Shown in pieces: positions 12,586-59,949 of a stretch of 64,000 bases of DNA; position 1 is the stretch's first letter, and each line of letters starts with the position of its first letter. Under the pieces are notes generated by a model that saw only the letters and a list, made by a program, of their open reading frames with translations, had not been told where the DNA came from and searched no databases. Made by a program: the position numbers and the translations under genes. Source of the DNA: Piedraia hortae CBS 480.64 (Eukaryota); NCBI GenBank assembly GCA_010093745.1, contig MU005966.1, positions 1-64,000 on the forward strand, in the 5' to 3' direction.

Positions 12586-14278
12586 TGTTGGATTTAAAAT
12601 ATCCACTGGCGAGTGGGAAGACTCGATATATGGTCGAAGGGCACGGACAGCGCGAACGACGGCAAGGAGTTCCCGTTCTGACGTATTGTAATTACGCTCG
12701 GCCGGAGAAAGGCTCTAGGAGAGAACGGCAACGGGGCGCGCATTTTGGAAGGCCATGGCACCAGTGGCAAAGCCGGAAGCGTCTGTATAAATACGCATTG
12801 GTTGATGGGGATCGTGGAGGAAGATGGGCGTAGAAGACGCCAGGCAGGTCTTGACGGCGGAGAACGCCTGATCATGTTCATTGGACCACAGGAAGGGGCC
12901 AGAAGTGAGGGCGTAGAGTGGCGCAGCAGCGTCGGCCAGGGAGGGCGTAAAGTCTCGAAACCAATTGGCTGTTCCGAGGAATTGCTGGAGCTCACGTGCA
13001 GATGGCGGTGCTGGCCAGGACGCCATGGCGTCGATATCGGAGGAAGGAGCAATCCGATTGTGAGAGAAGACATGACCCAGGTATTTAACGGTGGAAAGCC
13101 CGATTTGCGCCTTGGTAGATGAGTACTCAAGATTACGAGATTCAAGGAGGGCAAGGACAGCGTCGAGCTTTTCCTGATGGTCGGCAGCGTTGTTGGCGAA
13201 GATAATAATGTCGTCAATATATGCCGAGGCGAATGAGGCAACCGGTTGAAGGAGGTTATCGATGAACTTTTGAAAGATGGGCGGCCCATTCGTGATACCG
13301 AAGGACATGACTAGGTATTCGAAATATCCTTGTGGTGTTTTAAAACTGGTAAGGTGCTCCTGGCCCGGTATGATACGGAAGTTGTAAAATGCGTTTTTGA
13401 GATCCAGCACCGAGAAGAGTTTTCCCTTGGCAGCTTTATGGAGCAGGTCTCCCAGTCGTGGTAGAGGGTACTTGTCTCTGGTGGTAATCGCATTAAGCGG
13501 CCGGTAGTCAATACACAGGCGCAGCGAACCGTCTTTCTTAGGCACAAAAAGAGGGTTGCAGCTTGTCATGGGGTTCGACGGACGGATCCAGTTGCGGCGA
13601 AGTGCGTCAGCAATGTACGCCGTCATGGCACGGTCCTCCGGGACTGAGAGCGTACGGAGACGCCCACCGTCTTCCATGGTTCCCTGTACGTCGAAAGAGC
13701 AGACCGCAAGTTCCTGTGTGGAGGCGAAGAATGGTTCGCCAAGAATGGCCTCTTCAAGGAGGTGAGGGACAAGGTAGAAGGTAAAAATTCTTCCGTTGAT
13801 GGTCAGGAGAGCTGACTCCATGTTGGTGGCCACGGTGTCCCCGGTGATGCCTTGAATAGATACGGTGGAGGGGGTGCGCGGTCCGTCCCACAACGTAGCC
13901 CTGAGGCAGTTCAATTCGGCGCCCGAGTCCAAAAGGGCGGTGACAGCATCGCCGCTAGCGCGTAAGCAGGGCACTTACATAGCAAGTCAGCGATACCTCT
14001 AACACTACCAGCTGCACCCTAGGTTTTCCCCTCACAGAGGTTTTCCCTCATGACATATGTGGCATGGCGAATGCGCCCTGCTAGTGTACGTGACGTCACC
14101 GGCCAACCGGTACAGAATTTTTATTCTGAACGTCCCCTCATTTTGAGATATATAGTCATTCACATCGACTCATATCCATCTGCATTTTTCTTGTCCCTGT
14201 TTTCAATTTTCGTCTATCGCTTCGTCCTCTTAGTTCGGGACGCTGCGCACTCCCATCAACGAGCGCCTTATCGCTACA
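12586..14278. mobile_element. Family-A-related solo LTR split by an inserted gypsy pol fragment
   Basis: First 11 bp of the LTR (TGTTGGATTTA, 12586-12596), then a 1348-bp insert, then the rest of the LTR (13945-14278, AGCATCG...CTACA); flanks AAAGA/GAAGA (4/5). Confidence 0.8.
12597..13944 (-). pseudogene. pol: Ty3/gypsy pol fragment: aspartic protease, reverse transcriptase, partial RNase H
   Basis: LLDSGAELN (protease); WIRPS, KKDGSLRLCIDYRPLN, DLKNAF, MSFGITNGP, YIDD (RT); TDASG, ERNY, RELLAVV (RNase H). One TAG at 12715-12717; no gag and no integrase. Confidence 0.95.
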
Positions 14279-42950: not shown

Positions 42951-45900
42951 TGCCGTAGACGCATTGTCGTTAAGGCCCGAACTGCGACCACAAAGTGTCC
43001 GACGGCTTGTCTCCAGACATGAATTCGGATTGAGACAGCACTGCTCCTTTGAGACAGCATTGCTTGTTTGATACAGCAAGGCGTGTCTGGGACAGCACTG
43101 CTTTGTCGGAGTCGGCGCCTCTTGCCATGGTCAGCGGTTTATAGGCATGGAGGCGCCCCAAGATAAAGGTCATCCTTTTGTGCTTTCTAGCTCCCGAGAT
43201 CACCTCTCTGTACGATCTGATATTATCCCGTCTGCCCAGTGTTCTAGACAAAGGCGGCGTCCAGGAAGCTTGACCCGGTGGTGGATTGCGAACTTCACAG
43301 ACCGCCCCATCCCGAATTTCAAGCAGAGCGAGAACCTTCAGGAGGATGAAGAGCGCGCCCCCGGAGACCGCCGCCGAATGGAATGCAAGTACGCCCGGAG
43401 AGCGGGATCTGCTCAAACGCTGACAGAGGCTTGTGGTACGAGATTTCCTTCTGTTCCTCACTCACCAATCACGATATTCTTGTCAAATAATCCGTTGGGA
43501 GGTGGAAGGGAATAGTAATTCGTTAACGTTATTCTTAGAACAACGAAAACATCTATAGAGTGTACGGTTCGGAGTGTACGATTTGTAGTGCCGTTATGGT
43601 GGAACATAATCTCTATCTCTCAAAGTAGAATGGCCAGTGCAATCGAGCAAGCCCATTGACTTATCTTTTGGACAAGCAGTACAGTTTCCGGATGGAATAC
43701 ACCACACGGCTGACAGAGTCTCTGCTTTCTGCTATGGATGTAGCCAAGCAATACTCGCGCGGTTTGGTGAGGGCAGACTGCGTGACTTCCAGTAATAGAT
43801 CTCCAGTACGCGCTTTCTCGGATTACTTGCAAGTGCCAATATTCATTTCCACGGCCTCTGGCCACTTTGGTCATTCAGAATGATCAAACGGCTGATATAC
43901 CATTTCCCAATGGTAAAGGTGTTATCAAATCCAGCGGTGAGGTACTGCAGCCAGTCTCATGGGAAGGAACTTCGAATGAATCAAATAGCCCAGCGGCATA
44001 TACTGGAGGACAATAAATGACTGTTGAATATATCGCGAGCGAGGCCCGTCTTCTCATGCTGTGGGTGTATGCCGTAGGGCCTGTACCGCGCGTTTCCCGA
44101 AGTGGATTTTGTCGCGTTCGCTCTAAGTGTCACAACGGACAGCTCGTTGTCACTTGTGCTCCGCCACCGCATCGTTATATAGTCCTTCCTGTTCGTAGCG
44201 TGCGATGAGGCGTTTCCATCTTAGTCATATAGGCTGTTTTCCTCCACACCGGGACGGCAGACATCATGTAAGACGCCATTCTGGGACATATACTCGCTCT
44301 TTTCTATTTTGTGATGAGGGAAAGGTGCTACAGAATCTCTCGAGTGCAGGCGGTACTATCACGCAATAGTATCCTTACCCAGCGTACACTATCGAGCCAT
44401 AAGCCACTAAATGCAGAACATCCATTAGTTTGCGCAGCGCAGTGGTCAATCGTTGGTGTGGAATCAATGGGTCCACGAGTCAGAATCACGCAAGGGCAGA
44501 ACACCCATTAGCTTCCACAAGAAAAGTTGCCAACGGTGCGTGGACGCCTTCGAAATTATTATAGGAGTTTAGAACAGAGCCAGTCCACCTGCCCTTAGCT
44601 TTACCACGAGTCAGAACATTCTCGTGACCGGAAACCCACTAGCTTCTGTGGTGGAGCGGCCAACAGAAGGGCTGTTCACTCACTCGAGGCGACGTCTTGC
44701 TGTCCAAAGATGCTCCGACAGTCGGTCCAAACCTGAACGGAGCTGTGGACACATCATTAGCAGACCAGCAGATTGTCCGTCCCCAACGGCATAGAATTTT
44801 CCATTTGCCGCGTCGCAACCGGTAATAGTCGCTTTGAAGCTCCGGAGCCGCTGACTTCAAGGTCCAGAACAACCGTCATCATCTCCATATCAAATTCCAC
44901 ATTTGACAGGTGTGGAGTGAGAAAAAACGAATCCTAGGCTGAAACGCGCCTCTTCAATGAACATCCATAGAGAAAAGAAAAATCGTGGGAAGGAAACTAA
45001 AAACGCCATACCGCTGAGTTGCCACAAGCAATGTGCCGGCTAGTGCTTCCCTGGCAAAACAAAGAAGGCACATCAACGGCGCCGTTGAGGCATGATCGTT
45101 GTGCAAACCCGCGAATCACAGAGCATCAGTGAGCGGGGTCTATATTAACCGCAAATGTATGGCACCGAGCATCCCCATATTGGTGGGCTGATAAGCAAGG
45201 AAAAAACCTTTCTCGGGCACCACTTCCATACGCCTGCTCATTAAATTGTGATCTAAAATCTAAAGATCAACGAGGCGGTATTACGCTTCCACGACATGAG
45301 CGGCGTCGCATTGCATTTGCAGTCATGCAGCCAGTGCTGCGACCTGCAAGAGACCGGTTCTTGTGGAACATAGGCTGCAGGCACACGCAAAGGCGTTAGT
45401 TTCCCAATCCCTCCCCAGGCTTGGGGGCCATCATGTATGCAGCATGCAGTAGTTGCAGATCATGGCATAGGGTAACGGTCGGGTAAGCGGCAGCAGCATC
45501 TATAACCTCATACCGAGGATCGCTTGTACACCTGGCGATTTCGCTTACGTGCGGAGAAGCGGTCGCGCGAAGGATCGTTGGGAGGTGAAAAGGACATTCG
45601 ATTCGACGTGTAGCATTGAAGTTCTGTGATCAACTGGTCGCAAGCACCGCCAGCTGTACCGCATTAGATAAGAGCATGAGCATCTTAGCTAATAGTAACC
45701 GAATATCTTGTTCACATCCCTGCACCCCCGGAAATAGACCCAGCTGTAATGGGCACGCCTGACATCATGACGATCATGTACCAAGGAACATACATAGTTG
45801 CACAACTGCCTTACTGGCCCTGTCGCAGGCGGAGTTGCAAAGACGGGATGAGACGGAATTGTAAGACGTTATCGCGAGCAGTGTTGCGGGCAGTTGTTCC

Positions 45901-46109
45901 CACGGGCGATGTCGGGATCTTGTTCCCAACCCCGCGGGTTCACCGATAACGTCGGAATCTGTTTCCATGGCTGTCGATCACGCCACTGCGGCTCACCAAC
46001 CAATGTACATGGCGGGGAGGAGTAAGATCTTCCTGTTCTCATCCCCAGACCAATATCAACTGTTGGGCAACTTTACAGGTAGGCAAGAAAGTTGGACAAA
46101 GTCCCGTCT

Positions 46110-46161
46110 TGTACCTGTGCTTGTGCCTGTACCTGTGCCTGTGCCTGTACCTGTGCCTGTG
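46110..46161. repeat. Hexanucleotide microsatellite (TGTRCC)x8-9 with 18-bp higher-order period
   Basis: tgtacc tgtgct tgtgcc tgtacc tgtgcc tgtgcc tgtacc tgtgcc tgtg. Confidence 0.95.
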
Positions 46162-47425
46162 GAGCGGGTCTCCATCCAGTAGGCAGACTATTTATATCCC
46201 TTCCTCTTAAGTCTTTGCGGGGAAGGGGCGAACCCGATATAATTAGCCCGCATAGGCAATGCACGTACGTAGCTCCGAGCCATTACATCTTGAATTTATG
46301 GAAAATGATGAGAAACGAGGCCAACCAACCAAGCAACATCATATACTAGCAGTAAACAACGATCCTCAACAAAAGATACGAACTAGAATCCAACCAAACA
46401 ACTCCTTAGCCACACCCCCAACCCGCGAATCCTAAGCGATATGGAAACTCCCTCCCCAACCCGATCGCAAAGAGTCCAATTGGCCACCATCCACCCCACA
46501 CACCTTATCCTTTCCCTATCTTACCCAGCCAAAAAAGAAAAGTTTGCAAAAACCCTCAATCTTCGATGCGATAGAATTATCCTCGCGCCACCGCATGTCT
46601 CTCACTAAAGCTCGCCACATAACGTGTCTAAGCAGCAAGGTATCACAAAGAAAACCATTTCCATGTTCCTCACGTCATACATCTCCAAAAACAGGCTCCG
46701 CCACCACCATACCACATAACCTTGCTTCACACACAACCACATCTTGCCACGAAGAAAACCGTTTCCGTGTCTCCCGACATCTCCAGAAACAGACCCCGCC
46801 ACCAAGTTGTTTGGAATGTTAAAATAGGAACAAGAAAACGTTCGGGTGAACACCGCCCTCGGCTTTTAAAAACAAAGAAAAAGGAATGTTTCCTGGGGTT
46901 GGGACCGGGTGACTTGAATTGGGCATTGCAACGATGATGTAGGAGGTGCTCTCGCACCGTGTAGGTAGGCAGGGAGTTGGGTAACGCAAAGCACGTGGCG
47001 GTACAGACAACTGAGAGAGGTAGGTACGCCCACGTGGGTGACACTGCTGGTGAGGCCAAAGTATGGGGTATTGTCGTCCCGTACATAGGGTGATGTTAGA
47101 GTCACATGGCGGTGTAGCAAGGAAGTTGCATAACGATGTACAAATGCATAGAACAGAAAGAATGACAGTGTAGGGAGGTAGAGTCAAAGAAAAATTTGAA
47201 GACAAGTGAAACAGTAGAGCCAGCCATTTTATCAACATTGGCAGGGTCATGGTATTTGCTTCCTCTCCCACACATCCACCTACACACCCCCCCACACCGA
47301 ACTGTCTTCGGCCTGTCGTGGTCATCTTCATAATCCCCACAATTGCCTCCTCCCTCACACCCTCCCAAATGGAATAGTAGATATAACCCTGTCAAAAGGT
47401 ATGTACAAGAAAGCAAAGAGATGTA

Positions 47426-50389
47426 TTACGCTTCAATCTTCTCCTCGTTATTATTTCTGTTGAGGACGATGGCCTTTCCAAATGGCGCCGTGGTCCTGCG
47501 TTTCGGTACGGGCTCGTGCTTGCTCCATCGATCGATATTGCGCATAAGAGCCTGAGTAGGGAATTCGAGCAGGGGTGTGAGGATGTAGGCAAGGAGGAAG
47601 AGCCAAAAGTAGGACGTAAGGAAGGTGATGATGAGATTCGCCCAATATGGAACGTGGGCCATGTGGAGTTCGACAGCCACCCACGCACCCCATGTCCACT
47701 GCACGAAGCCGTGAAGAAGGTAAATGGTCATGACATGCGGTCGCATCCAGAGGATGGGACGCAGAGACAGAAACCATTGTACCCAAGTAGACAGCTCGAC
47801 AAGAACTTGCAGACTGATGGAGAAGATGAGGATAGCCAGCGTGGGCTCAAAGTACTCGGGATAGATGCGGCCAATGGGTTTGCCAGTGAAGAAATTGGGG
47901 TGGATAGCGTTCTCATGCGACTCGAAAGACCAGACGCGGTTGGAGGCCCCGATGGCACAAGCCCCAAGGGCTAGAACGGTAGCACCGAGAATGATAAGAT
48001 AGCGCATCGGGGGACGCTGGTTCAGCGCTTTGCGCCACTTGTACGTGGCCTCCAGGTCGGAGAGCAGCAGACCGCACCAATGACAGGCGGCCCAGCTGCG
48101 AGCGTACCAGCCAAGGATGATGGCGAGGGCGTAGAAGCCGAAACGTTTGTATGGCGTGCAAATGTCACGAATCATGACAGTAGCAAGCAGGATCTGATAC
48201 GTGAACTGCAGCTGCACAGGAACGGTCCAGAGCACACCGACGCAATAATGGCTGACAATGGCCGGCACGGCGTTGGGCATCAGATAGGCCAGTTCGATGA
48301 GATTGTCCATGTAGACGCCAAAGTTGGGTGGTGCCACCACGTACGGCCACGTCGACCAAGACACCGATGGCAGATACTGCAACGCCGAAGTGATGTTCAT
48401 CGACAGCAGGAAATATTGGGCTGTGGCGATGATGAGGATGGGCACAAACAGACGGGGGGCACGGCGCAGCGTCTTCTTGGCCACGTCGTCCAGCCGCCCA
48501 TTCTTAAGGTAGTTTGTGGTCAAGAATCGCGTGGCAGTCAAGAAAAAGGGACCTATCCAGAGCTGTGTGAGGATGACGTTGCCGAGAATCTTGGCTAGAT
48601 ATTTTTCAGCCTTGGGGTAATGAGCAATCGGGCCAAAGTCCTCAGAGATGTACGGCCAGAAGGTCTGACAAAAATGATGCACTGACACGGCAAAACAGGC
48701 CACAGCAACCAGACCAGCGAGGTAGTCAATCTGCTTCTTGGGTGGAGGCGGAGTCTCGATGTGCAGTGGGTTGGTGACGCCCTTGACATCCGTCTCGGGC
48801 GGGTGCACGCGGACCTGGCCCTCCATCTCCTCGGCAGTAGGTGGTGCGCCCTGCTCCCTGAATGGCAGACCCGGCTGAAGATAGCTGGTGATGGTCGCGC
48901 TCTTCTCATCAAACGGGTTCTCGATGGCATGCGTGTCGGAGAAGGGATCGTGGTGCTCTTGCTGCGGCGCCTCATCGATGCGGCCAAGAACGGCAATTTC
49001 ATCCCCTCGGTCGCCCGAAGACCGCCCTTCGACTAGCGGACGCTCCTCCGGTCCGTTCTGCGGCGTGGAGGATCGCGGCAGACTGACCATACTAGCATAG
49101 GGAGGCACAGGCGTCTGTGCGCCCGAGCGCGGTGTGTGAAGACCGCTGTACATGGGCAGCGGGGTCTGGATACCGGGAGTCGAGTAGCCCGACGAGGTGC
49201 CAGACACAAAGTATCCCTTCTTGGTCGTCGAGCCATTTGACGAGCGCTGGTCCAGCGTGCCCTCGTTGGATGGCGGGGGCGCCCGCTTCGCGCGCCGATA
49301 CGACGGCCGCATCTTGTGGAACGGCGTACGGCGAAAGCAAGTGTTGATCAGCGCGAAGATGCCAAAGATGCTGCAGGCGGCCGCGACAACGCCAGCAAGA
49401 ACACGCAGACCACGCGGCCCACCCTCATCCTTCCACTTCCTCTCTGACTCGACGCCAAACGCGCTGTAGCCGCGCAAATCTGGGTCCTCTGTGGTGCACT
49501 GGGACTCGCCCGCGCAGCGTTTGTCGTAGTCGTGATGATCTGCGGCTGACATGGTCGACGAGTTGAAGAAGGCGCGCACGTAAAGCACGTAGGCTCGCGA
49601 GTTATCGCGCAGAGGCGGACCACCCATGTAGGTTGAGTCGCCGGTGGAGAAGGTGTGCAGAAACAGCGGCTGCCCAGCACGCGGCAGGGAGCGCTTCTTC
49701 TTGGTTAGCGACCGCGTGTTGTTGTCCGCGACCCAAAAGTCAACATTGGTCTTGTTCCAGTCCATGCGGACATGCGTAAAGTCGTCCCAGATGCGTACGC
49801 CGGCATGCTCGAGCGTTGTGAAGTTGGTGGTCCGCGTGGGATCGGGGAACTCCCCATTGACAAGGTACGCAGCTCGCGCCTCATCTGACGAATCCATGTT
49901 CATGAGCTCTGTACTGAGGCTCTCCGAGTCGTTGAAGCGCAGCTGGAAGGCGAGCGAGACACCGCCCGAAGCCGAGCCAGCGGGCCTCAGACCAGCACGG
50001 AAGGTGCCGTATTGGATATCCTGGCGAACAGAGCGGAGGCTGGCTCCGGTGACGAGATGATCTTGGGTTGCCGGGTCTGTCAACAACTCCAGAACCTGAT
50101 TTTCGGTGCTGAAGAAGGTGTTGCTGGTCAGCTTGACGTTATCCGGGCTCGCGCCGACGCGGTAGATGGAGTTCCATCCCTTCTCCTTGCGGTGCTTAAA
50201 GTCCTGCGCGATCCACTGGTCGGTGTCAATCGACTTGGACTCGTTGAAGTAGACGACGATGGCGTCAGTGAAGCGCTGCGAAGTCTTCGGATCACGGAAG
50301 CCGCAGGGGCAGTCCTTGGGCGACAGCTTGGCAGCCGACGCCAGCTGAGAGCCCAGCACCAGGCCACAGAGGCCCAGAGAGAGCAGCAT
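47426..50389 (-). CDS. Fusion protein: signal peptide, GH16/concanavalin-like domain, TM helix, disordered linker, acyltransferase-3 (OafA-like) multi-TM domain (987 aa)
   Basis: Hydrophobic signal peptide, CPCGF, DIQYGTFRA and RMDW...VDFWV GH16-type motifs; C-terminal ~10 TM helices with YLAGL...HHF, RRAPRL and LWTVPVQL; single intact ORF. Confidence 0.85.
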   Translation of the reverse strand: MLLSLGLCGLVLGSQLASAAKLSPKDCPCGFRDPKTSQRFTDAIVVYFNESKSIDTDQWIAQDFKHRKEKGWNSIYRVGASPDNVKLTSNTFFSTENQVLELLTDPATQDHLVTGASLRSVRQDIQYGTFRAGLRPAGSASGGVSLAFQLRFNDSESLSTELMNMDSSDEARAAYLVNGEFPDPTRTTNFTTLEHAGVRIWDDFTHVRMDWNKTNVDFWVADNNTRSLTKKKRSLPRAGQPLFLHTFSTGDSTYMGGPPLRDNSRAYVLYVRAFFNSSTMSAADHHDYDKRCAGESQCTTEDPDLRGYSAFGVESERKWKDEGGPRGLRVLAGVVAAACSIFGIFALINTCFRRTPFHKMRPSYRRAKRAPPPSNEGTLDQRSSNGSTTKKGYFVSGTSSGYSTPGIQTPLPMYSGLHTPRSGAQTPVPPYASMVSLPRSSTPQNGPEERPLVEGRSSGDRGDEIAVLGRIDEAPQQEHHDPFSDTHAIENPFDEKSATITSYLQPGLPFREQGAPPTAEEMEGQVRVHPPETDVKGVTNPLHIETPPPPKKQIDYLAGLVAVACFAVSVHHFCQTFWPYISEDFGPIAHYPKAEKYLAKILGNVILTQLWIGPFFLTATRFLTTNYLKNGRLDDVAKKTLRRAPRLFVPILIIATAQYFLLSMNITSALQYLPSVSWSTWPYVVAPPNFGVYMDNLIELAYLMPNAVPAIVSHYCVGVLWTVPVQLQFTYQILLATVMIRDICTPYKRFGFYALAIILGWYARSWAACHWCGLLLSDLEATYKWRKALNQRPPMRYLIILGATVLALGACAIGASNRVWSFESHENAIHPNFFTGKPIGRIYPEYFEPTLAILIFSISLQVLVELSTWVQWFLSLRPILWMRPHVMTIYLLHGFVQWTWGAWVAVELHMAHVPYWANLIITFLTSYFWLFLLAYILTPLLEFPTQALMRNIDRWSKHEPVPKRRTTAPFGKAIVLNRNNNEEKIEA

Positions 50390-50971
50390 TGCAGAGGGGA
50401 GAGCGCGGAGAGACAGAATGTAGAGAAGATCAGATTACAGGGCAAAAAACATGGGGGGCAGCTTGCTACTTCGGCTGCTTCCAGAGTGACACCACGCCCG
50501 ACGAGAAAGAAGACGGCGGAAAAGTGGGTCCAGCCGCCGCGGCAGGACCCAGAATGGAGCCGAGCGCTGATGACAGGGTTTGGATTGACGGAAATTTAGC
50601 TTTGTGGCGCGGGGCAAGCATGCCGTTGGGCTGCTCGTGAATATTGGTTTTGCGCAATTCTTTTTTGTTGTTTCATAAATAGCGCAATAGCGCGCGCATG
50701 GTAATTAACTGATAGTGAGCGCTGGGAAAGTCTGATAACCCGCATGATGACCCGTTTGATGGGATGGCCCGTTGGATGGCAATCAACCGCCACAGCACTC
50801 CAAGCTGCCACAACTCCTATACATGCTTTAACCGCGCAGCAGTAAAACTTCGAAGTGAATTTAGCCAACGTTGACACCCATCAGCCATACGTTAAGCTCC
50901 ACCAGCCATTGCAGCTCTCGTCAGCCACAGTGTTACACCCATCAGTCACGACATTCTCTCCAATTAACCAT

Positions 50972-52426
50972 CTACTCCATTAGCCACTCAAATGCCTTTG
51001 CCGCCAGCTTTTGGGATGGCCGGTCAATTGCCCGGTAGTACAATTCGGTCGCTGCAATGGTGGTTATCGCGCCCACCACAAACACGGCAAAATTTGCCAA
51101 AGCCGAAGACGTCCCATTCTCGGTAAGATGCAGGTAAAGTTTGATGCCAGCCGTCCAAAGAACGAGGCTTTGGGCGACAAAGATGCTCAAAGACCGCCGT
51201 CCGATCGCCGTAAGCCACCTAGCAGATAACACTCGCTGGGCTCCTGCAGTAGTCTCCACAACGAGAAGTAGGCCGAAGATGACGAGGAAATTGTCGAGGC
51301 GTGGCAGCGGGTCGTCCATGACAAAGTCTTTGAGCGTCATGTTCTCGTAAATATCGAGGTGAGGGTGGAGTATGAGTTCCTTGTTTGCATAGTGAGGCCA
51401 TACGCTCCAAATGACCTTGAAAATGAGCCCCGCCAGGAGCATTCCCGCCGCAGGAATCTTCACTGGGACTTTCCAATGTTCTGTTATCTCTACCCCCTCT
51501 TCGAGACGCTTTTTGAGGACAGGATTGATCATGTAGCTAGCCAATAGCAGCGCGGCTGCATCGTAGAAGCCCCAGGAAGCCATCCACCACGCCCCCAACG
51601 CGAACATGAAGATGTACGGGCGGTGCCAAGTCGGGCGCACATATGGCAGAACGACCATCAAAAAGTACACCGTCCATGATTGCTGGAAAATGAGAGAAAC
51701 ACTCCACAACGTATTGGTCGGCCAAAACTTGTTAGCCGCCTGCCAAAAGTAGGATCGCACGACCCAGAAAATTCCAAACATGGAGTTGAAGGCAACGAGC
51801 GCGCTGTCCGGAACGTCCGGAGCTGGCAGCGAATCGTTAGGACGTCGCTCCTTGAACTTTTCAATGTAATGAACACCAAGCCCAGCGAAGATGGCCATGC
51901 TGAGGCCAGAAGCGATGGAAACGGCAATAGCCATGCGAATGATGCGGCGGATGACGGTACCGCTGAGACTGATGGGCGTTGGGTTCGTCAAGAAGAGAAT
52001 GCAGATAGAACGGGCGCTCAAGACAAAGAAAAAGGAAGCGATGAGCGAAGCGTTCCAAGCCCAAGAGGAGAGAACGATGCGGACCACGCTCATGCCAGTA
52101 GACGCATTGTGGCCCGGGTAGATGATGCGAGGGATAAAAGTCGCGAAAAAGGTCCAGAAGAAGCTTGAAAGAACGATGATACCGCGAAGTCCGTCGAGGT
52201 GTTTGTGCCTTGGCGCATTGCCATCAGCCAGATCAACAGCAGTGGAGTCATTGGCAGGCGACGTCGACGGCTTCATCGCGCGCAACCGCGACATGAGGCC
52301 CGACGACGTCTTCTCCTGCTGACCCGACATGGCAGATGTCTCAGTGGGCGTGCTAGTCCCGGTGTTTGGGTTTGGCGAGGCCAGGGGGAAGGAGGCCATG
52401 GGCGTGCTCTCCTTTGGGGTGTCCAT
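50972..52426 (-). CDS. Acyltransferase-3 family membrane protein (about 484 aa)
   Basis: LDGLRG, FFVLS, RRIIRM, LWSVS, IGRRSLSIF and YRAIDRPS motifs; ~10 TM helices; likely start MDTPKE at 52426. Confidence 0.87.
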   Translation of the reverse strand: MDTPKESTPMASFPLASPNPNTGTSTPTETSAMSGQQEKTSSGLMSRLRAMKPSTSPANDSTAVDLADGNAPRHKHLDGLRGIIVLSSFFWTFFATFIPRIIYPGHNASTGMSVVRIVLSSWAWNASLIASFFFVLSARSICILFLTNPTPISLSGTVIRRIIRMAIAVSIASGLSMAIFAGLGVHYIEKFKERRPNDSLPAPDVPDSALVAFNSMFGIFWVVRSYFWQAANKFWPTNTLWSVSLIFQQSWTVYFLMVVLPYVRPTWHRPYIFMFALGAWWMASWGFYDAAALLLASYMINPVLKKRLEEGVEITEHWKVPVKIPAAGMLLAGLIFKVIWSVWPHYANKELILHPHLDIYENMTLKDFVMDDPLPRLDNFLVIFGLLLVVETTAGAQRVLSARWLTAIGRRSLSIFVAQSLVLWTAGIKLYLHLTENGTSSALANFAVFVVGAITTIAATELYYRAIDRPSQKLAAKAFEWLME

Positions 52427-53301
52427 TGCGGCGACGGGATGTTGGGAGAAGAGGTGAGGTGAACAGAACCAAAGAGGAAAGGGTGCCTGAGTGGGGGCGG
52501 ATGCTAAATGTGGCCCGAGCGGTGCGGAATTCGGGGCGGACAGCGTTTTCGCCGGACAGACGAAAAGCCGCTCCATGCCCTAACGCCACCGCAGGTGCAT
52601 TCACGCTTTCCTGTTTGGGCCGCATCGCGTGTCGCAGGTTGGGAGCATCACTACCACTTTCAGACCCGTGGTGTGAGCTGCATCGTGGGGCCGGGGAATG
52701 AGCTGTGTACCTGGCACGTCCAATCGTGCCTGCGCTAGCCTCCTGACTCGTCGACAGCGTCGGCGCTGTCAACTCGTCGCTGTCGCCCGCCTGCCAACCC
52801 CTTTCCCCTGCCAATAATAGCCACCCCCACCCCTGTCAGATACCACTGCCGTCAGCGTCTCCACCTTCGTCACTCCACATGTGTAGTTCCCCACCCAGCT
52901 GTCATTTACGCAGGCAGAAAAACAACAAAAACCTAACGACCCCTGCACGTGGCGTTGCTGCCAATCCCGGCAAGCATAATCAATTCCGGGGCTGCCAATT
53001 CGCTTTCCCCACTTGACCCAATCATTGCTCGGCCGATTCCGCGCCGCTACCTTAATTACGCGGGCTTATGTTGCTGCGGGTGGGTCCGTATCTTTGCAAG
53101 AAATCCATCGTTTGGTTCTTCACTCTTTCCTGCCACCCTCACCCACCCACCGACTCTCGTTTTTTTCCTTCTCAACCCCTCAACGCTTCCCCTTGTTTGT
53201 ATCTCGCACCGACCCCGCGTCTTTTAACCACTTTGATTTTGCCGCCGACTTTCCCAAGAACATCACCCAAGCGCCGCTCCGGCTGCCCACGCTCGCTCAT
53301 A

Positions 53302-54965
53302 ATGTTTCCGCGTCTTTTCCGCTCCCACGGGGCCTCGAACCTCACTGAGCTCTCTCCGTTGTCCGACGATGGCTCTCCGCACAGTTCCAGCTTTCCGCTG
53401 CCAGCGCAGTCACAGGCGCCAGCCTCCCAGCCCAAAACTTTCAAGAAGGCGATGCTCTCGATGCGGGACCACTGGATGCGCTTCTCGGACTGGCTGACGG
53501 AATGGACGCCCGTCATCCTTGTCACCAGCTACTGGGTCGTTTGCACTGCCATCTTTGTCATGTGCAATGAGCCAGCCATTCGTTTCTTTTATTACTTTTA
53601 CATGGTGGTCAATCTGTACATTGCCGTCTGCGCCGCGGTGGAATCGTTTCTCGGCTTGACGCCTGTGCGAGATGCTGCCATGGCCGCCGACAAGGCCGAT
53701 GCCACGGGCAAGTTTCCCAGCTCCGACGAGGCTCTTCCGACTCTGGACATGGTTATGGTTGCATACTTGCCCAACGAAAAAGACATCGTTGTTGGACAAG
53801 TTATGTACGCGCTTGAGGAGCTCAAGTACCCGCGCGAGAAGCTGCGAATTAGTGAGTGCTTGCTGGTGTCAGGTGGATTTGACTGACCATCCAGACCTTG
53901 TTTATAACACTCCGAAGCCCATCGAACCGGTCGAGACGCAGCTGCGTGAGCTGGACGAGCAGTACGACCAGCTGCGGGTCATCAAAGTGCCCAACTCCAA
54001 GTCCAAGGCCGACAACCTCAACCATTTCTTCTCTCTTCCACCCTCTGGCGCTGATTACACGGGCGTCTTCGATACCGATCATTGCCCTCACCCGTACAAC
54101 CCCCGCTGGGCTGCCGAGCGTTTTATCCTCGACAAGCCCGATATCGTGCAAGGCCGCTGCATCGTCTACAACACCAACGAGTCGTTCTGGGCGAAAATGA
54201 TTGCGATTGAATTCGACAAGATCTATGCCATTGCGCATCCTGGCCGCAGCCGCATGTTCCAGTTTGGTCTCTTTTGCGGCAGCAACGGCTGGTGGCGATC
54301 GGAGGTGCTGCGTGAGCTGAAGATGCACGGCGAGATGTTGACTGAGGACATTGACTCTGCCCTGCGCGCATACGGTGACGGCAACCGTGCCGTCCACGAC
54401 ATGAACGTGCTGTCGTATGAGCTTGCGCCTAATTCGTTTGGAGCTTTCTGGAAGCAGCGGATGAGGTGGACCCAGGGTAAGTTTTGACGTCATAGGCTGG
54501 ATTGGCGGCCGCTTACGAAGTTCAGGCTGGACGCAGGCTTCAATTGTTCACTTGCCGCTTATCTGGACTAACCCGCCCCGTGGCCATCGTGTGCCGCAGG
54601 AGCGCCTCGGTCTCTTCTCGCTGCTCTTTGTGCGTGAGCTGAGCTACTACTTTGTCTCGCAGCACACGTGTCTCCTGCTCAGTTTCATCATCACGGGCTG
54701 GCCGAACGATGCCGGCAGCTTTGTGCGGCTCATTTTCTTCCGCTACCCGATGGCCGAGTGGTTCTTGTTCATCACCATTCTCTGTCTTATCTTCACTCTT
54801 TGGTTCACGGATCGCGTGCGCAGCGAATTCACCAGCTGGCGGGCGATGATTGTCTTCTCGATCATCTACACGCCCTACCTGATCCTGCAGAGCACCATGG
54901 GTCTGTTTGGACACGCAAGAGAACTGGTCAAGTACTCTTCGTGGAATCCGACGACGAGAGGGTGA
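53302..54965 (+). CDS. Processive GT2 glycosyltransferase, cellulose-synthase-like (523 aa; introns 53852-53894 and 54477-54525)
   Basis: Two N-terminal TMs, YLPNE, KADNLN, FDTD (DxD), LTED, QRMRW (QxxRW) and C-terminal TMs; both introns are canonical and give a continuous frame. Confidence 0.92.
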
Positions 54966-55246: not shown

Positions 55247-56488
55247 ATGGCAACAAAGAGTAAGTTGGACCGCATCGTGTTGATGCCCGTAGGCACGATT
55301 GGATGCGGCAAGACGACGCTCGCAGCAACGCTGCAGAAGCTGTTTGGCTGGGCTCACGTCCAGAATGACGATGTGAACGTCAAGTCGGGCAAGGCGCGTG
55401 CGTTTGCCATGTCCTGCGTGCAGGAGCTGAAGAGCCACGCAGCGGTGGTGGCAGACCGCAACAACCACCTGCGGCGGGAGCGAGACCAGCTGATGGTCGA
55501 CGTGGCCGCCAAGGTGCGCACGAGATTGGTGTGTCTGCATTACGTCCATGATGTAGCGAACGTTGGCCGCATCCAGAGAATCACGCAGGCCAGGGTCATT
55601 GAGCGCGGCGACAACCATCAGACGATCAAAATGTCGAACGGCGTTGAGCAGGTCTTCGATATCATGAAGGGCTTCATCGACCGCTTCGAACCGGTTAATG
55701 TCAAACAGTCGCCTGACGATCAATTTGACCTCGTCATCAATCTCGACCCGTGTGCATCGACCGCCGACAACGTGGAAGTTGTACTGCGAGACATGTGCAA
55801 GGCGTATCCAGGTCTTATCTCCAACGTACCGAATAAGGCTGCAATTCATGCAGCTGTCCGGGGTAAACATATACCGTCAGGGCCTGCGCTTACGACCCAG
55901 CCATCTACCCTCCAGGTAGGACTGTCTGCACCCAAGGTAGAGCAGTTACCCAGGGGACCGCCATCCGCTTTCGCGGTACAGCAGAAGCTGCAGCCGCCTG
56001 CAATGAAAGTTGTGTATTTTGCCGTGCACGTTCCGTCTGATCGCGTGGTTCAGCTCCTGGACGACGTCTTTCGCGACGTCGAGGCCCAAGTTAGCGACAT
56101 GTACCGAATGCTGAAGAAGGGTAATCGTTTACAGCGCACATTTCACGTCACGCTCATCCACCGAGCATCCTCTGGACAGCATGCTGATTATTGGAACAAG
56201 TTGATGAAGCAGCAGCAGCTCACCAACGGCCCGCTGGGCCAGTGTCGCGTGCGCATGGAAAGGGTTGTATGGGACTCTGAAGTCATGGCGTTTGTTGTGC
56301 GTCTCGAAGGGAGATTTCGCTCAGTTAACAACGTTGCGCATATCACGGTAGGGACGGTGTCAGACGCGGTGAAGCCGGCTCAGGCGAATGTTATGCTGGA
56401 CAAATGGCTTAGGGAGGAGGGTGGAAGTGATATCATGGTTGATGGCGTGGTCGAGCTGGAGGGTGCAGCAAAGGCGTTTACGTATTAA
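55247..56488 (+). CDS. Trl1-type polynucleotide kinase plus 2',3'-cyclic phosphodiesterase, lacking the ligase domain (413 aa)
   Basis: P-loop GTIGCGKTT, HVQNDD, ADRNNH, RGDNHQTI and two 2H motifs (FHVTL, HITVG). Confidence 0.85.
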   Translation: MATKSKLDRIVLMPVGTIGCGKTTLAATLQKLFGWAHVQNDDVNVKSGKARAFAMSCVQELKSHAAVVADRNNHLRRERDQLMVDVAAKVRTRLVCLHYVHDVANVGRIQRITQARVIERGDNHQTIKMSNGVEQVFDIMKGFIDRFEPVNVKQSPDDQFDLVINLDPCASTADNVEVVLRDMCKAYPGLISNVPNKAAIHAAVRGKHIPSGPALTTQPSTLQVGLSAPKVEQLPRGPPSAFAVQQKLQPPAMKVVYFAVHVPSDRVVQLLDDVFRDVEAQVSDMYRMLKKGNRLQRTFHVTLIHRASSGQHADYWNKLMKQQQLTNGPLGQCRVRMERVVWDSEVMAFVVRLEGRFRSVNNVAHITVGTVSDAVKPAQANVMLDKWLREEGGSDIMVDGVVELEGAAKAFTY

Positions 56489-56665: not shown

Positions 56666-58072
56666 ATGGCGATTTTCGGTGATCCAGAAAAAGGGGAGGA
56701 TAAGTTCAAGGCCGAGGACGATGGGTCGCCAATTGACACAATTGCGGCGCTTGTGCAGGAAGATCACCAGCATGATATCAAGTTGCGCACAATGTCTTGG
56801 CAAAAGGCCGCTTGGCTTCTTGCCGGCGACCAGGTCTGTCTTGCTATCATGGCCCAGACATGGTCACTGTCGGTATTGGGCTGGGTGCCGGGACTCATAA
56901 CAATGCTGGTAGCTGGTGTCTTCTTCTGGTTCACTTCGATGACGATGCACAAGTTCATCATGAGGCACAGCCATATTCGCGACATTTGCGACTTTGCGTC
57001 GTACTGCGTGGGTGGCTCGAGGATTGCGTACGAGGCAGCAGGCGTGATGCTCACTATCAACAATGTCATGATCATCGGCTTTCACATCTTTACCGGTGCA
57101 AAAATAATCAATACACTGAGCGACCATGCACATTGTACCGTCATCTACTCCGTCATTGTCATGATATTGGGCATCATTATGAGCCTGCCTCGCACCTTGC
57201 GCCATGTCAGTCTCATGAGCATGTTTTCAGCGGCCTGTATGGCCCTTTCTATCTTGCTGTTTGTCGTCTACGTTGGCATCGAAGACGCTCCATCCAATGG
57301 ACCTGGCAAAAAGGTCTACCCCCAACTTGGGCCGGTAAAATCTTACAACTACCCACCCAAGGGGACCAGTTTCGTCGGCATTATGAATGCCGTCTTAAAC
57401 ATCACCTTTCTCTGGGTGCCTCAGATCCTGTTTCCGACCTTTATTGCGGAAATGGAACGGCCTCAGGACTTTCCAAAGGCTCTTGCCGTGCTGACAGCCA
57501 TCTCGGCTGTGCTGTTCACCGTTCCGCCCGCCATTGGCTTCTACTTTCTTGGGCAGTACTCGACTGCCCCGGCATTTGGCAGCCTCGGCCTGCCCAAGTT
57601 CAAGAAGTCGTCGTTTGCGTTTGTCATTGTGCCGACGCTTGTCATTGGCGTCATCTATGCAAATGTCAGCGCAAAGTTCATCTATAACCGCATCATGGGC
57701 TCGTCAAGACATGCGCATAGCCATACTGTCACCGGCTGGTCGGCATGGATCGCGGTGATGGCGACCATCTGGGCTGTGGCCTTCATTTTTGCTGAGGTGA
57801 TTCCGTCCATGGGCGATTTCTTGTCTCTGCTCGGCGCCGCTTTTGACTCTTTCTTTGGATTCATCTTCTTTGCGCTGGCATATTTCAATATGCATCGGGG
57901 CAACTACTTTGCTGGGGCAAAGCGGTCGCTTGCAACTATTGGTCACGTCCTCGTTATGTTGGCGGGTTTGTTCTTGCTTGGACCTGGCCTCTACGCTGCC
58001 GTTGATGCCATCATAGATGATTATTCCGGGTCTACAACGCCTGCCTTTACGTGTGCAGATTCGTCTCTGTAA
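56666..58072 (+). CDS. Amino acid/auxin permease family (Aa_trans), Mtr-like neutral amino-acid transporter
   Basis: RTMSWQKAAWLL, LGWVPG, IRDICD, SLPRTL and AEMERPQDFPKAL motifs; ~11 TM helices. Confidence 0.88.
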   Translation: MAIFGDPEKGEDKFKAEDDGSPIDTIAALVQEDHQHDIKLRTMSWQKAAWLLAGDQVCLAIMAQTWSLSVLGWVPGLITMLVAGVFFWFTSMTMHKFIMRHSHIRDICDFASYCVGGSRIAYEAAGVMLTINNVMIIGFHIFTGAKIINTLSDHAHCTVIYSVIVMILGIIMSLPRTLRHVSLMSMFSAACMALSILLFVVYVGIEDAPSNGPGKKVYPQLGPVKSYNYPPKGTSFVGIMNAVLNITFLWVPQILFPTFIAEMERPQDFPKALAVLTAISAVLFTVPPAIGFYFLGQYSTAPAFGSLGLPKFKKSSFAFVIVPTLVIGVIYANVSAKFIYNRIMGSSRHAHSHTVTGWSAWIAVMATIWAVAFIFAEVIPSMGDFLSLLGAAFDSFFGFIFFALAYFNMHRGNYFAGAKRSLATIGHVLVMLAGLFLLGPGLYAAVDAIIDDYSGSTTPAFTCADSSL

Positions 58073-58324
58073 TTTTGAACCGTTTATGCTTAGACATATT
58101 CTTGTGCTCCCGTACATACCCAGATCAGATAAGACTTGGTCTTTCAAGCAATATTCGCTGTCACATCTAACGATTCGACTCATTAAAATTGACACCTTGG
58201 TGCAAACCTTTCAGCCCCGTTCCACTCACTGTCCACTCAACACTGCAACCTATTAGTCTGAAGGCCAACCATCAAGATCTACCCTCTGTTATCTTACCAC
58301 TTTGTAATTCACCATTTATTAGAA

Positions 58325-59437
58325 TCACCGCGTCCCATTAACCCCCTTCCTCCCCTCTCCCAACTGTCCAGCAACGCATGCCGCCTCCCTGACCGCTCTG
58401 GCGACCGCACCTCTCACATTCCCCTCCTCCAGCACCAGAAGCCCACCAATCGTACACCCTCCGGGGGTGCAGACTTTATCCCTCAGCACAGCGGGATGTT
58501 CCTTTCCCTCGAGCAGCAACGCCGTAGTACCGCGCATCGTCTGCGTCGCCATGATATAAGCCTCCTCCCTAGGAACACCCATCGCGATCGCGCCAGCAGC
58601 CATACTCTCCACCAGCAACGCCACAAAAGCAGGCCCAGATCCACACAACGCCGTGCAAGCATCCATGCAGCTCGCCGGTAAGCTCACCACCCGCCCGATC
58701 TTCGAGAAGATATACTCCACCACTGCGCGATCAGTAGTCGTTACTGCTGTTCCACCTTTCCCTTCCCCATTCTCAATCGAAACAACAGACATACTCTCCC
58801 TCACCGCAGCAGCCGTATTGGGCATGACCCTCACAACCCTACACCCCCCATCCAGAAACCCACGAATCGTCCCCTCCGTAATTCCCGCACATATACTAAC
58901 CAGCAACTTCCCCCTCAACGCCTCACCAATTCCATCACCACTCAACACCTTCTCCACAGCATACGGCTTTACGCAAAGCAGAACCACATTCGCGGCGCGC
59001 AGCGCGGGGAGTATATCCCCTACATGGACCGTAACCCCCGACGCGAGCGTGCCAAGTTCGGTTTTTATGCGCCCCGCACCCCGCGCGCTTGGCACGCACG
59101 CGTGGAATCTCGTAGGGATGGGGAGGGCTGAGTCGTTTCGCGCGGGTATGCCCGCATCTGAGCTGGAGAGGAGACCCCGCAGGATCGCGATGCCCATTGT
59201 TCCGCAGCCGAGAACGGTTAGTGTTGATTCATTCCCAGTGGGGTTGTGGGTATGAATGCTATCGCTGGAATTGGTGTTGGAATCCATGGTATCGCCGTTG
59301 CTGGTGGTCGTTTTGCTATTGCCGCCGGCGTAGGGATGCAGTTCCGCAAACTTCTTCCGTAGCTCGGCTTCTTGCGCAGCGAGAGTTGCTTCGAGGATCC
59401 AGTTGGGTGTTAGTTCCCGTTCGGGTTGTTCAGGCAT
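58325..59437 (-). CDS. PRO3: Pyrroline-5-carboxylate reductase (start 59437 or 59287)
   Basis: GCGTMG, LCVKP, SICAG, VRVMPNTA, ALCGSGPA and VCTPGGCTIGG motifs. Confidence 0.93.
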   Translation of the reverse strand: MPEQPERELTPNWILEATLAAQEAELRKKFAELHPYAGGNSKTTTSNGDTMDSNTNSSDSIHTHNPTGNESTLTVLGCGTMGIAILRGLLSSSDAGIPARNDSALPIPTRFHACVPSARGAGRIKTELGTLASGVTVHVGDILPALRAANVVLLCVKPYAVEKVLSGDGIGEALRGKLLVSICAGITEGTIRGFLDGGCRVVRVMPNTAAAVRESMSVVSIENGEGKGGTAVTTTDRAVVEYIFSKIGRVVSLPASCMDACTALCGSGPAFVALLVESMAAGAIAMGVPREEAYIMATQTMRGTTALLLEGKEHPAVLRDKVCTPGGCTIGGLLVLEEGNVRGAVARAVREAACVAGQLGEGRKGVNGTR

Positions 59438-59454
59438 CTTTTTTTTTTTTTTTT

Positions 59455-59694
59455 NNNNNNNNNNNNNNNNNNNNNNNNNNNNNNNNNNNNNNNNNNNNNN
59501 NNNNNNNNNNNNNNNNNNNNNNNNNNNNNNNNNNNNNNNNNNNNNNNNNNNNNNNNNNNNNNNNNNNNNNNNNNNNNNNNNNNNNNNNNNNNNNNNNNNN
59601 NNNNNNNNNNNNNNNNNNNNNNNNNNNNNNNNNNNNNNNNNNNNNNNNNNNNNNNNNNNNNNNNNNNNNNNNNNNNNNNNNNNNNNNNNNNNNN
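59455..59694. other. Assembly gap (240 N) next to a poly-T run
   Basis: Run of N characters. Confidence 1.
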
Positions 59695-59949
59695 AAGGTT
59701 TAAAAAGTGTGACTGCATGATGGTTTATTCCTTGTCTGTGAATAGCGATTAAGCAGAAAAAAATCTCGGCGTCACAGCTCCCTGCTCCGCATCTATCACG
59801 ACAGGTTGCGGTATATCTCGATGGTCGTAGCACTTGGTACATAGGGGGGACTTCAGGTTCTGATACGGAGTGGAGACACAGTAGTACCACAGTGAGTAGG
59901 GGAGGTACGTGTCAGAAGCTCAGAGCACGTCACCGTAGTGTAATTTTCG

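Follow-up and report, generated by a model that had tools for sequence, protein, structure and literature searches.

In the staphylococcal icaADBC system the synthase IcaA is paired with IcaC, and the product, poly-N-acetylglucosamine (PNAG), has a beta-1,6 linkage, while the galactosaminogalactan cluster of Aspergillus combines a GT4-type synthase with a deacetylase, active hydrolases and an epimerase. IcaC is described in passages of PMC9833829 as a stand-alone protein of the acyltransferase family 3 (AT3), and Kre6 and Skn1, according to passages of PMC11620752, are transmembrane (TM)-anchored proteins of glycoside hydrolase family 16 (GH16) tied to glucan synthesis. Here we describe three genes, A, B and C, in the first 64,000 nucleotides of contig MU005966.1 of Piedraia hortae CBS 480.64 (assembly GCA_010093745.1; this whole stretch is called the window), which bring a synthase of glycosyltransferase family 2 (GT2) together with two AT3 proteins, one of them fused to a GH16 domain. 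The trio is an apparently undescribed and strongly conserved fungal three-gene cluster, and we regard it as reasonably probable that it encodes a synthase-dependent route to a beta-glycan, O-acylated and either extracellular or part of the cell wall, with a beta-glucan as the likeliest kind.

As the original prediction held, the genes are adjacent, real and intact, with C divergent from B, and their coordinates and strands hold:

Gene A: 50389..47426, minus strand; 987 amino acids in a single open frame, comprising a signal peptide, a GH16 domain that appears catalytically dead, a TM helix, a disordered linker and an AT3 domain.
Gene B: 52426..50972, minus strand; 484 amino acids, an AT3 paralogue of the AT3 domain of A with the transmembrane acyltransferase (TmAT) fold.
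Gene C: 53302..54965, plus strand; GT2 synthase of 523 amino acids in three exons (53302-53851, 53895-54476, 54526-54965).
Divergent B-C intergenic region: 52427..53301, no strand; 875 bp, presumed shared promoter.

The trio resembles icaADBC in joining a processive GT2 (there IcaA) to a stand-alone AT3 (there IcaC), and TIGR03937, the PgaC/IcaA model, is among the best NCBIfam matches of C; unlike that system it has no IcaD- or IcaB-type neighbour, possesses two diverged AT3s and a dead GH16, and resides in a fungal host. BcsA/BcsB are the nearest solved relatives of C, with DxD, TED, QxxRW and FCGS common to both, and the TM-anchored domain of A could act as BcsB does; C differs in having YNTP for the DD motif, no PilZ, fewer TM helices and AT3 partners. 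The galactosaminogalactan cluster is alike as a fungal synthase clustered with modifying and glycan-binding partners, but it draws on other families, none of which is a constant neighbour of the trio. Cps1/CpsA/ZtGT2 and CelA/Tft1 are, as C, fungal membrane-bound GT2s. From Kre6/Skn1, A differs by its N-terminal signal peptide, its fused AT3 and its lack of a catalytic motif.

The conservation of the cluster was followed by scanning metagenomes with an alignment of the GT2; this gave 131 relatives, the best 80 of them being kept, among which loci L008 and L030 are close to such fungi as Aureobasidium and Alternaria alternata. Of the 80 loci, 21 extend 5 kb or more beyond the GT2 in both directions, the other 59 being too short, and in all 21 the trio was complete (B, GH16 and the AT3 of A; 16 groups at 90% nucleotide identity). 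B and GH16 accompanied the GT2 in 27 of 27 loci with 3 kb flanks, and of 48 loci reaching 2.5 kb to one side, 47 had a partner gene. By gene order, 26 groups fell into A- C+ B+ (16), A- B- C+ (8, the order of the window) and B- C+ A+ (2), and there was no fourth constant gene, any other flanking family occurring in at most 3 of 52 representative loci. The trio linkage is a true conserved cluster, far beyond chance. The original prediction would have been contradicted by unlinked orthologues, and the synteny scan found every informative locus linked.

This linkage evidence covers Pezizomycotina, and the records from smut fungi (Ustilaginomycotina) are A-type and B-type proteins only. The closest named proteins are those of Piedraia hortae itself, KAF2862309 (A) and KAF2862311 (C). 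Consecutive trio members are annotated in Meristemomyces (LTR85_010641-3) and Neophaeotheca (g6658-60), adjoining tags or accessions occur in Acrodontium and Hortaea (two genes each) and Alternaria arborescens (A and C), and C and B are merged into one gene model in Curvularia (adjoining A) and Cryomyces. The public models P0214 and P0144 fuse the GT2 with a B-type gene (in Curvularia together with a transporter); given the tight tandem layout, these mergers are probably annotation errors. Further members were seen in Endocarpon, Lasallia, Candelaria, Chaetothyriales and Leotiomycetes. A profile search gave 517 proteins, 150 of them listed, and among the 20 of these that were identified there were A-type proteins of Meira, Violaceomyces, Jaminaea, Tilletia, Thecaphora, Sporisorium and Candelaria, and B-type proteins of Ustilago, Tilletia, Exobasidium and Clarireedia; the three word-index protein searches were length-limited, and for A they covered fused forms.

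The pairing of this GT2 with an AT3 recurs in bacteria. A scan of prokaryote genomes with the GT2 gave 418 relatives, of which 80 (L083-L162 in our numbering) were kept, mostly from Actinomycetota; they share 34-46% identity with the fungal proteins and the same YNTP, TEDIDS and QxxRWxQG motifs, and the nearest non-fungal GT2s are bacterial fusions with N-terminal receiver (REC) and GGDEF-like domains. In 62 of the 80 loci an AT3 shares the strand of the GT2, and in 59 it is at most 300 bp from the GT2 stop, many of the AT3-bearing loci being related Streptomyces and hence not independent. Together with the fungal linkage, the three orders and the lack of another constant neighbour, this recurrence supports the original prediction of a self-contained pathway. 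The bacterial REC-GGDEF-GT2 and AT3 operon is like the fungal system in its GT2 (35-46% identity) and in the AT3 directly downstream, and unlike it in its receiver and GGDEF-like domains, its single canonical AT3 and the lack of a match to the GH16 module; the REC-GGDEF control domain is missing from the fungal system, in which the AT3 is duplicated and a GH16 module added. The bacterial AT3 is only remotely related to the fungal pair (hhalign E 7e-4 and 0.016, compared with 2e-16 between A and B), and the fungal AT3 and GH16 queries gave no match in the bacterial loci. It follows that the GT2-AT3 pairing may have arisen twice; a joint transfer of GT2 and AT3 from bacteria, which we also considered, is unsupported, since the bacterial AT3 is just remotely like A or B. 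In a GT2 tree the 18 fungal and 29 bacterial rows separate with an SH-aLRT support (Shimodaira-Hasegawa-like approximate likelihood ratio test) of 100, the method being a quick one and the tree unrooted, so that it does not give a direction of transfer. The operon of REC-GGDEF-like-GT2 and AT3 is itself uncharacterised and common in Streptomyces (for example L107:9311-10534, with the GT2 just upstream), and in several loci that have no AT3, histidine kinases or response regulators adjoin the bacterial GT2.

We propose that C would polymerise a cytosolic uridine diphosphate (UDP)-sugar and pass the chain across the membrane, where the GH16 domain of A, held by its TM helix outside the cell or in the secretory lumen, would bind and guide the chain without cutting it, in the manner of BcsB. 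The AT3 domains would move acyl groups from cytosolic acyl-coenzyme A (acyl-CoA) over the membrane onto the chain. Of the two, A is the likelier catalyst of acylation because its outer His is kept, and B, which has no His and retains arginines on the CoA side, might be an obligate partner for donor handling, for a second acyl group or for structure.

The two AT3 units show the following:

AT3 domain of A, amino acids 555-956: 47522..48727, minus strand; His572, RxxR 643-646, ExxxHP 826-831 and YLxH 890-893, with Val561 in place of the TM1 Arg.
AT3 features of B: Arg81, RxxR 161-164 and ExxxH 350-354 present; TM1 His missing.

The family assignments of the trio were confirmed by atlas searches. 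A matches PF01757 with an E of 2e-6 (Pfam, under the curated cut-off) and B more weakly (E 0.008, also under the cut-off), and B aligns to the AT3 domain of A with a probability of 98.7 and an E of 2e-16 (hhalign), so that the two are paralogues. The model of B, with a predicted local distance difference test (pLDDT) score of 62, takes the TmAT fold: in a structural search HGSNAT gave Z 13.5 over 292 aligned residues (root-mean-square deviation, rmsd, 5.1) and GWT1 gave Z 9.9 over 284 (rmsd 5.4), the next row standing at Z 6.4. Foldseek with the same model found no match below E 0.001 and placed HGSNAT first at E 0.09; it was the wider structural search that recovered HGSNAT. The tandem AT3s of the original prediction, one of them GH16-fused, are thus borne out by folds and Pfam, with the reservation that the R-X10-H motif of TM1, absolutely conserved and essential in AT3 proteins according to passages of PMC9833829, is incomplete in both. 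It is split between them: A has V-X10-H and B has R-X10-T. In the rows of A the His is present in 30 of 32 and the Arg in just 9 of 32, mostly smut fungi, whose A has the full motif; in the rows of B an Arg or Lys is present in 43 of 43 and the His in none. The RxxR of TM3 is present in both (R643/R646 in A, R161/R164 in B), and the ExxxH of the outer loop is near-invariant in both (His in 32/32 rows of A and 40/43 of B).

With A lacking the Arg in Pezizomycotina and B lacking the His, O-acylation stands on weaker ground than the original prediction took for granted and than the Pfam labels would imply. One may ask whether the polymer is real and yet unacylated in these ascomycetes, A and B being AT3 folds that have given up catalysis and act as a scaffold, as an exporter or in the control of chain length. 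We hold this to be unlikely. In its favour, half of R-X10-H is gone from each protein, both fall under the Pfam cut-off, and the system keeps other dead enzymes, both the GH16 and, in a second trio described below, the GT2. Yet A retains His572 (30/32), RxxR and YLxH, the near-invariant outer-loop ExxxH is common to A and B, the smut-fungus A has the full motif, and GWT1, according to passages of PMC12423673, is active without the His, so that loss of activity does not follow from a missing His.

Our analysis of C bears on the nature of the product. Its motifs are given here with the introns:

Motifs of C: YNTP, KADNLN, DTDH (243), FCGSNG, TEDID (333) and QRMRW (371), with TM helices at both ends.
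Intron 1 of C: 53852..53894, plus strand; 43 nt, GT..AG, its joint seen spliced in public run X1.
Intron 2 of C: 54477..54525, plus strand; 49 nt, GT..AG, in agreement with the public protein model, its joint absent from the run X1 list.

The GT2 exon matches PF13632 (Pfam, E 9e-14), and the solved-structure matches of the C profile are cellulose synthases only (6 sequences, the best being BcsA at E 2e-12). The original prediction of a GT2 with D,D,D,QxxRW stands in its later motifs: DxD, FCGS, TED and QxxRW are retained in C (DTDH 243, TEDI 333, QRMRW 371), DxD, TED and QxxRW being conserved in 47 of 47 fungal and bacterial rows (one with CED). The first D(D) is absent, an N standing in YNTP where the DD of BcsA aligns to YNT. 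As every one of the 47 rows, fungal and bacterial, has YN[TS/C]P in its place, we read it as a mark of the clade and not as decay. C scores 66.9 bits against TIGR03030 (BcsA/cellulose synthase; cut-off 699) and 53 bits against TIGR03937 (cut-off 422), below both cut-offs, and the seven other PF13641 matches of the genome show no real similarity to it (tblastn, best E 0.003); two of these seven are putatively Cps1-like, by motif. C would appear to be a processive GT2 of an uncharacterised clade common to fungi and bacteria, for which polymerisation is predicted.

The product could also be short or lipid-linked, such as an acylated glycolipid or an osmoregulated glucan of the kind made by OpgH and OpgC. 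The few TM helices of C and its altered first D motif would fit this, as would the two-component-type control of the bacterial GT2 and, in passages of PMC12423673, the occurrence of fungal AT3s in small-molecule clusters. Against it stand the QxxRW, TED and FCGS of processive synthases with BcsA as the best solved match, the polysaccharide-binding fold fused into A, and the fact that the trio is not constantly accompanied by a transporter, a synthase backbone or a lipid gene, and we consider such a product rather improbable.

The N-terminal part of A is arranged as follows:

Signal peptide of A, amino acids 1-19: 50333..50389, minus strand; by hydropathy, the N-termini of relatives being hydrophobic.
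GH16-fold domain of A, about amino acids 27-320: 49430..50311, minus strand; conserved Cys and six N-glycosylation sequons.
Single TM anchor of A, amino acids 326-354: 49328..49414, minus strand.
Linker of A, amino acids 360-551: 48737..49312, minus strand; unconserved, pLDDT below 50.

A matches PF00722 above the cut-off (Pfam, E 3e-5), and its N-domain model is a GH16 beta-jelly-roll with lichenases as best matches (Foldseek E 1e-11, target TM-score 0.77). The catalytic strand (amino acids 157-162) has neither ExDxE nor ExDxxE in either possible register; this genome's A is left with one Glu of the three catalytic positions, and the strand is unconserved. Of 32 rows of A, 2 lack the region, and in the alignment, read by eye, the remaining 30 show ExDxE in none, which argues for a membrane-tethered binding or scaffold module and not for a secreted hydrolase; the original prediction had the domain as secreted. 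Judged by its sequence, the GH16 domain is a catalytically dead, membrane-anchored module, with binding predicted. That it should instead be an active hydrolase or transglycosylase, trimming or grafting the polymer as proposed for Kre6/Skn1, is very improbable given the 0/30 count and the single Glu; the full GH16 fold, two catalytic-strand carboxylates in some rows, and the requirement of the TM-anchored GH16 proteins Kre6/Skn1 for beta-1,6-glucan in passages of PMC11620752 are what speaks for it. Finally, that the adjacency is an accident of genome or shared ancestry without a common pathway is scarcely credible: many sampled loci are from related Dothideomycetes, and in Tilletia the two genes A and B appear to lie apart, but the trio outlasts four rearrangements with wholly changed flanks and the GT2-AT3 pairing recurs in bacteria.

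As to the linkage of the polymer, we put forward, as a tentative and still doubtful first choice, that C is the synthase of a pustulan-type beta-1,6-glucan. The choice follows from the GH30_3 neighbours of the bacterial genes and from cluster members in lineages with linear beta-1,6-glucan. GH30 occurs in 9 of the 80 bacterial loci, in four unrelated lineages and twice in two of them, and is the sole glycoside hydrolase family to recur across lineages among the scanned neighbours (a part of 828 open reading frames, chosen as family representatives); the two GH30s tested had 5NGK as best match both times (E 2e-84 and 3e-53), an entry described in passages of PMC5481569 as a GH30_3 endo-1,6-beta-glucanase. 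Linear beta-1,6-glucan is reported in Umbilicariaceae, with the Lasallia pustulan partly acetylated (passages of PMC7389562), and in Guignardia and Lasiodiplodia (passages of PMC6268985). The cluster members that we found in such lineages are single genes: A in Lasallia and C in Phyllosticta and Neofusicoccum.

Several points weigh against the proposed pathway and its linkage. The cluster is widespread, so that pustulan producers are hardly set apart by having it; GH30 is absent from 71 of the 80 bacterial loci; the GH16 fold of A is nearest to beta-1,3(4)-glucanases; and the matrix of Bipolaris sorokiniana, which has the GT2, is reported in passages of PMC9252488 as mainly 2,3-type hexoses and not as rich in 6-linked glucose. 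Besides, R-X10-H is incomplete in both AT3s of this genome, an objection softened by the activity of GWT1 without the His; the A and B tags lie far apart in Tilletia walkeri; and the 80 of 131 relatives were chosen by GT2 similarity, so that a diverged, unlinked GT2 could escape. A Bipolaris matrix with much beta-1,6-glucan, which we had expected, is not what these passages of PMC9252488 describe. For luteic and islandic acid, malonylated beta-1,6-glucans from Penicillium/Talaromyces, none of the three papers listed by a literature search contained the terms.

A malonyl-CoA ligase lies near the bacterial operon in 15 of the 80 loci, all of them Streptomyces (L137:5044-6498, L146:2771-4186 and 13 more), two of which were tested for identity with an E of 1e-238 or better, and some of these loci also carry a MatC dicarboxylate carrier. 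The ligase is a weak hint that malonyl may be the acyl group, for which a shared chromosome position may suffice as explanation.

The same genome contains a second trio, A', C' and B', at G000:C13:283752-289720 (loci L176 and L177), about 6 kb long and in a fourth gene order. A' is an open frame of 924 amino acids, C' an open frame of 390 amino acids with 22-23% identity in which DxD, TED and QxxRW are all lost, and B' carries one frame change, an assembly error or decay. A' and B' have closer relatives in Alternaria, Endocarpon and Curvularia than in A and B of the window, which makes the duplication old. The second trio may be dying, or the dead GT2 C' may be retained as a scaffold. In a bold form of our proposal, the two AT3 paralogues would share out the catalytic motif between them, the dead GH16 would be a chain guide and C' would be a regulatory or scaffold subunit.

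The gene models deserve a few remarks. Public protein P0040 equals our spliced model of C, starting at Met59, and the public model of A, P0001, removes as an in-frame intron a stretch of 129 nt (43 residues) of the linker; since relatives keep it and the joint is absent from the X1 list, the stretch is probably coding. Public run X1 consists of contigs whose RNA nature is the tool's guess and whose depth cannot rank genes, and it covers all three genes; none of the runs listed as matching is on record as RNA. One further row belongs to it:

Poly(A) loose end: 55154, plus strand; 189 nt beyond the stop of C, in one contig.

Expression is indicated by the intron joint and the poly(A) end in this one contig run. 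When 27 divergent intergenic regions were scanned for shared 7-mers, none stood clearly above shuffles (best 16 versus 11). An X1 contig of 2.6 kb spans window positions 45500-47269 downstream of A, a stretch without a long open reading frame. On the other side, at 55247-56488 (plus), lies a fungal tRNA-ligase-like gene with kinase and phosphodiesterase domains, a frame of 413 amino acids without the ligase domain and with little room for one upstream, followed at 56666-59425 by an amino-acid transporter (plus) and a pyrroline-5-carboxylate reductase (minus), with a run of N near 59430-59700. Farther away, at 12594-13974 (minus), overlapping frames make up a retrotransposon protease/reverse-transcriptase-like fragment.

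Our search of the literature on this gene set and its known alternatives, judged from titles and abstract openings, found no description of the set, and supplement catalogues could list the trio without a function; the passages of PMC8355462, PMC13390465 and PMC13509883 hold no description of the trio, and a bioRxiv paper on Ustilago GH30_3 has none of the trio-related terms. In passages of PMC6962315, PMC11620752 and PMC7389562 the fungal beta-1,6-glucan synthase is called unidentified, which concerns mainly the yeast wall glucan, perhaps made otherwise.

The trio is a defined candidate for a fungal surface polysaccharide pathway across several classes of Pezizomycotina, and the passages of the literature cited here assign no genes to the beta-1,6-glucans, linear and partly acetylated, that occur in lichens and Botryosphaeriales. 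Even with a different linkage, the trio would parallel in a fungus the bacterial synthase-plus-AT3 operons, with AT3s acting on a fungal glycan and a split active-site motif, and the analysis also reveals an uncharacterised, two-component-linked GT2-AT3 operon in Streptomyces. If the bold form of the proposal is true, C would be a beta-1,6-glucan synthase, so far never found in any fungus. For the black-piedra fungus itself, a matrix polymer of this kind could bear on the cementing of its nodules to hair.

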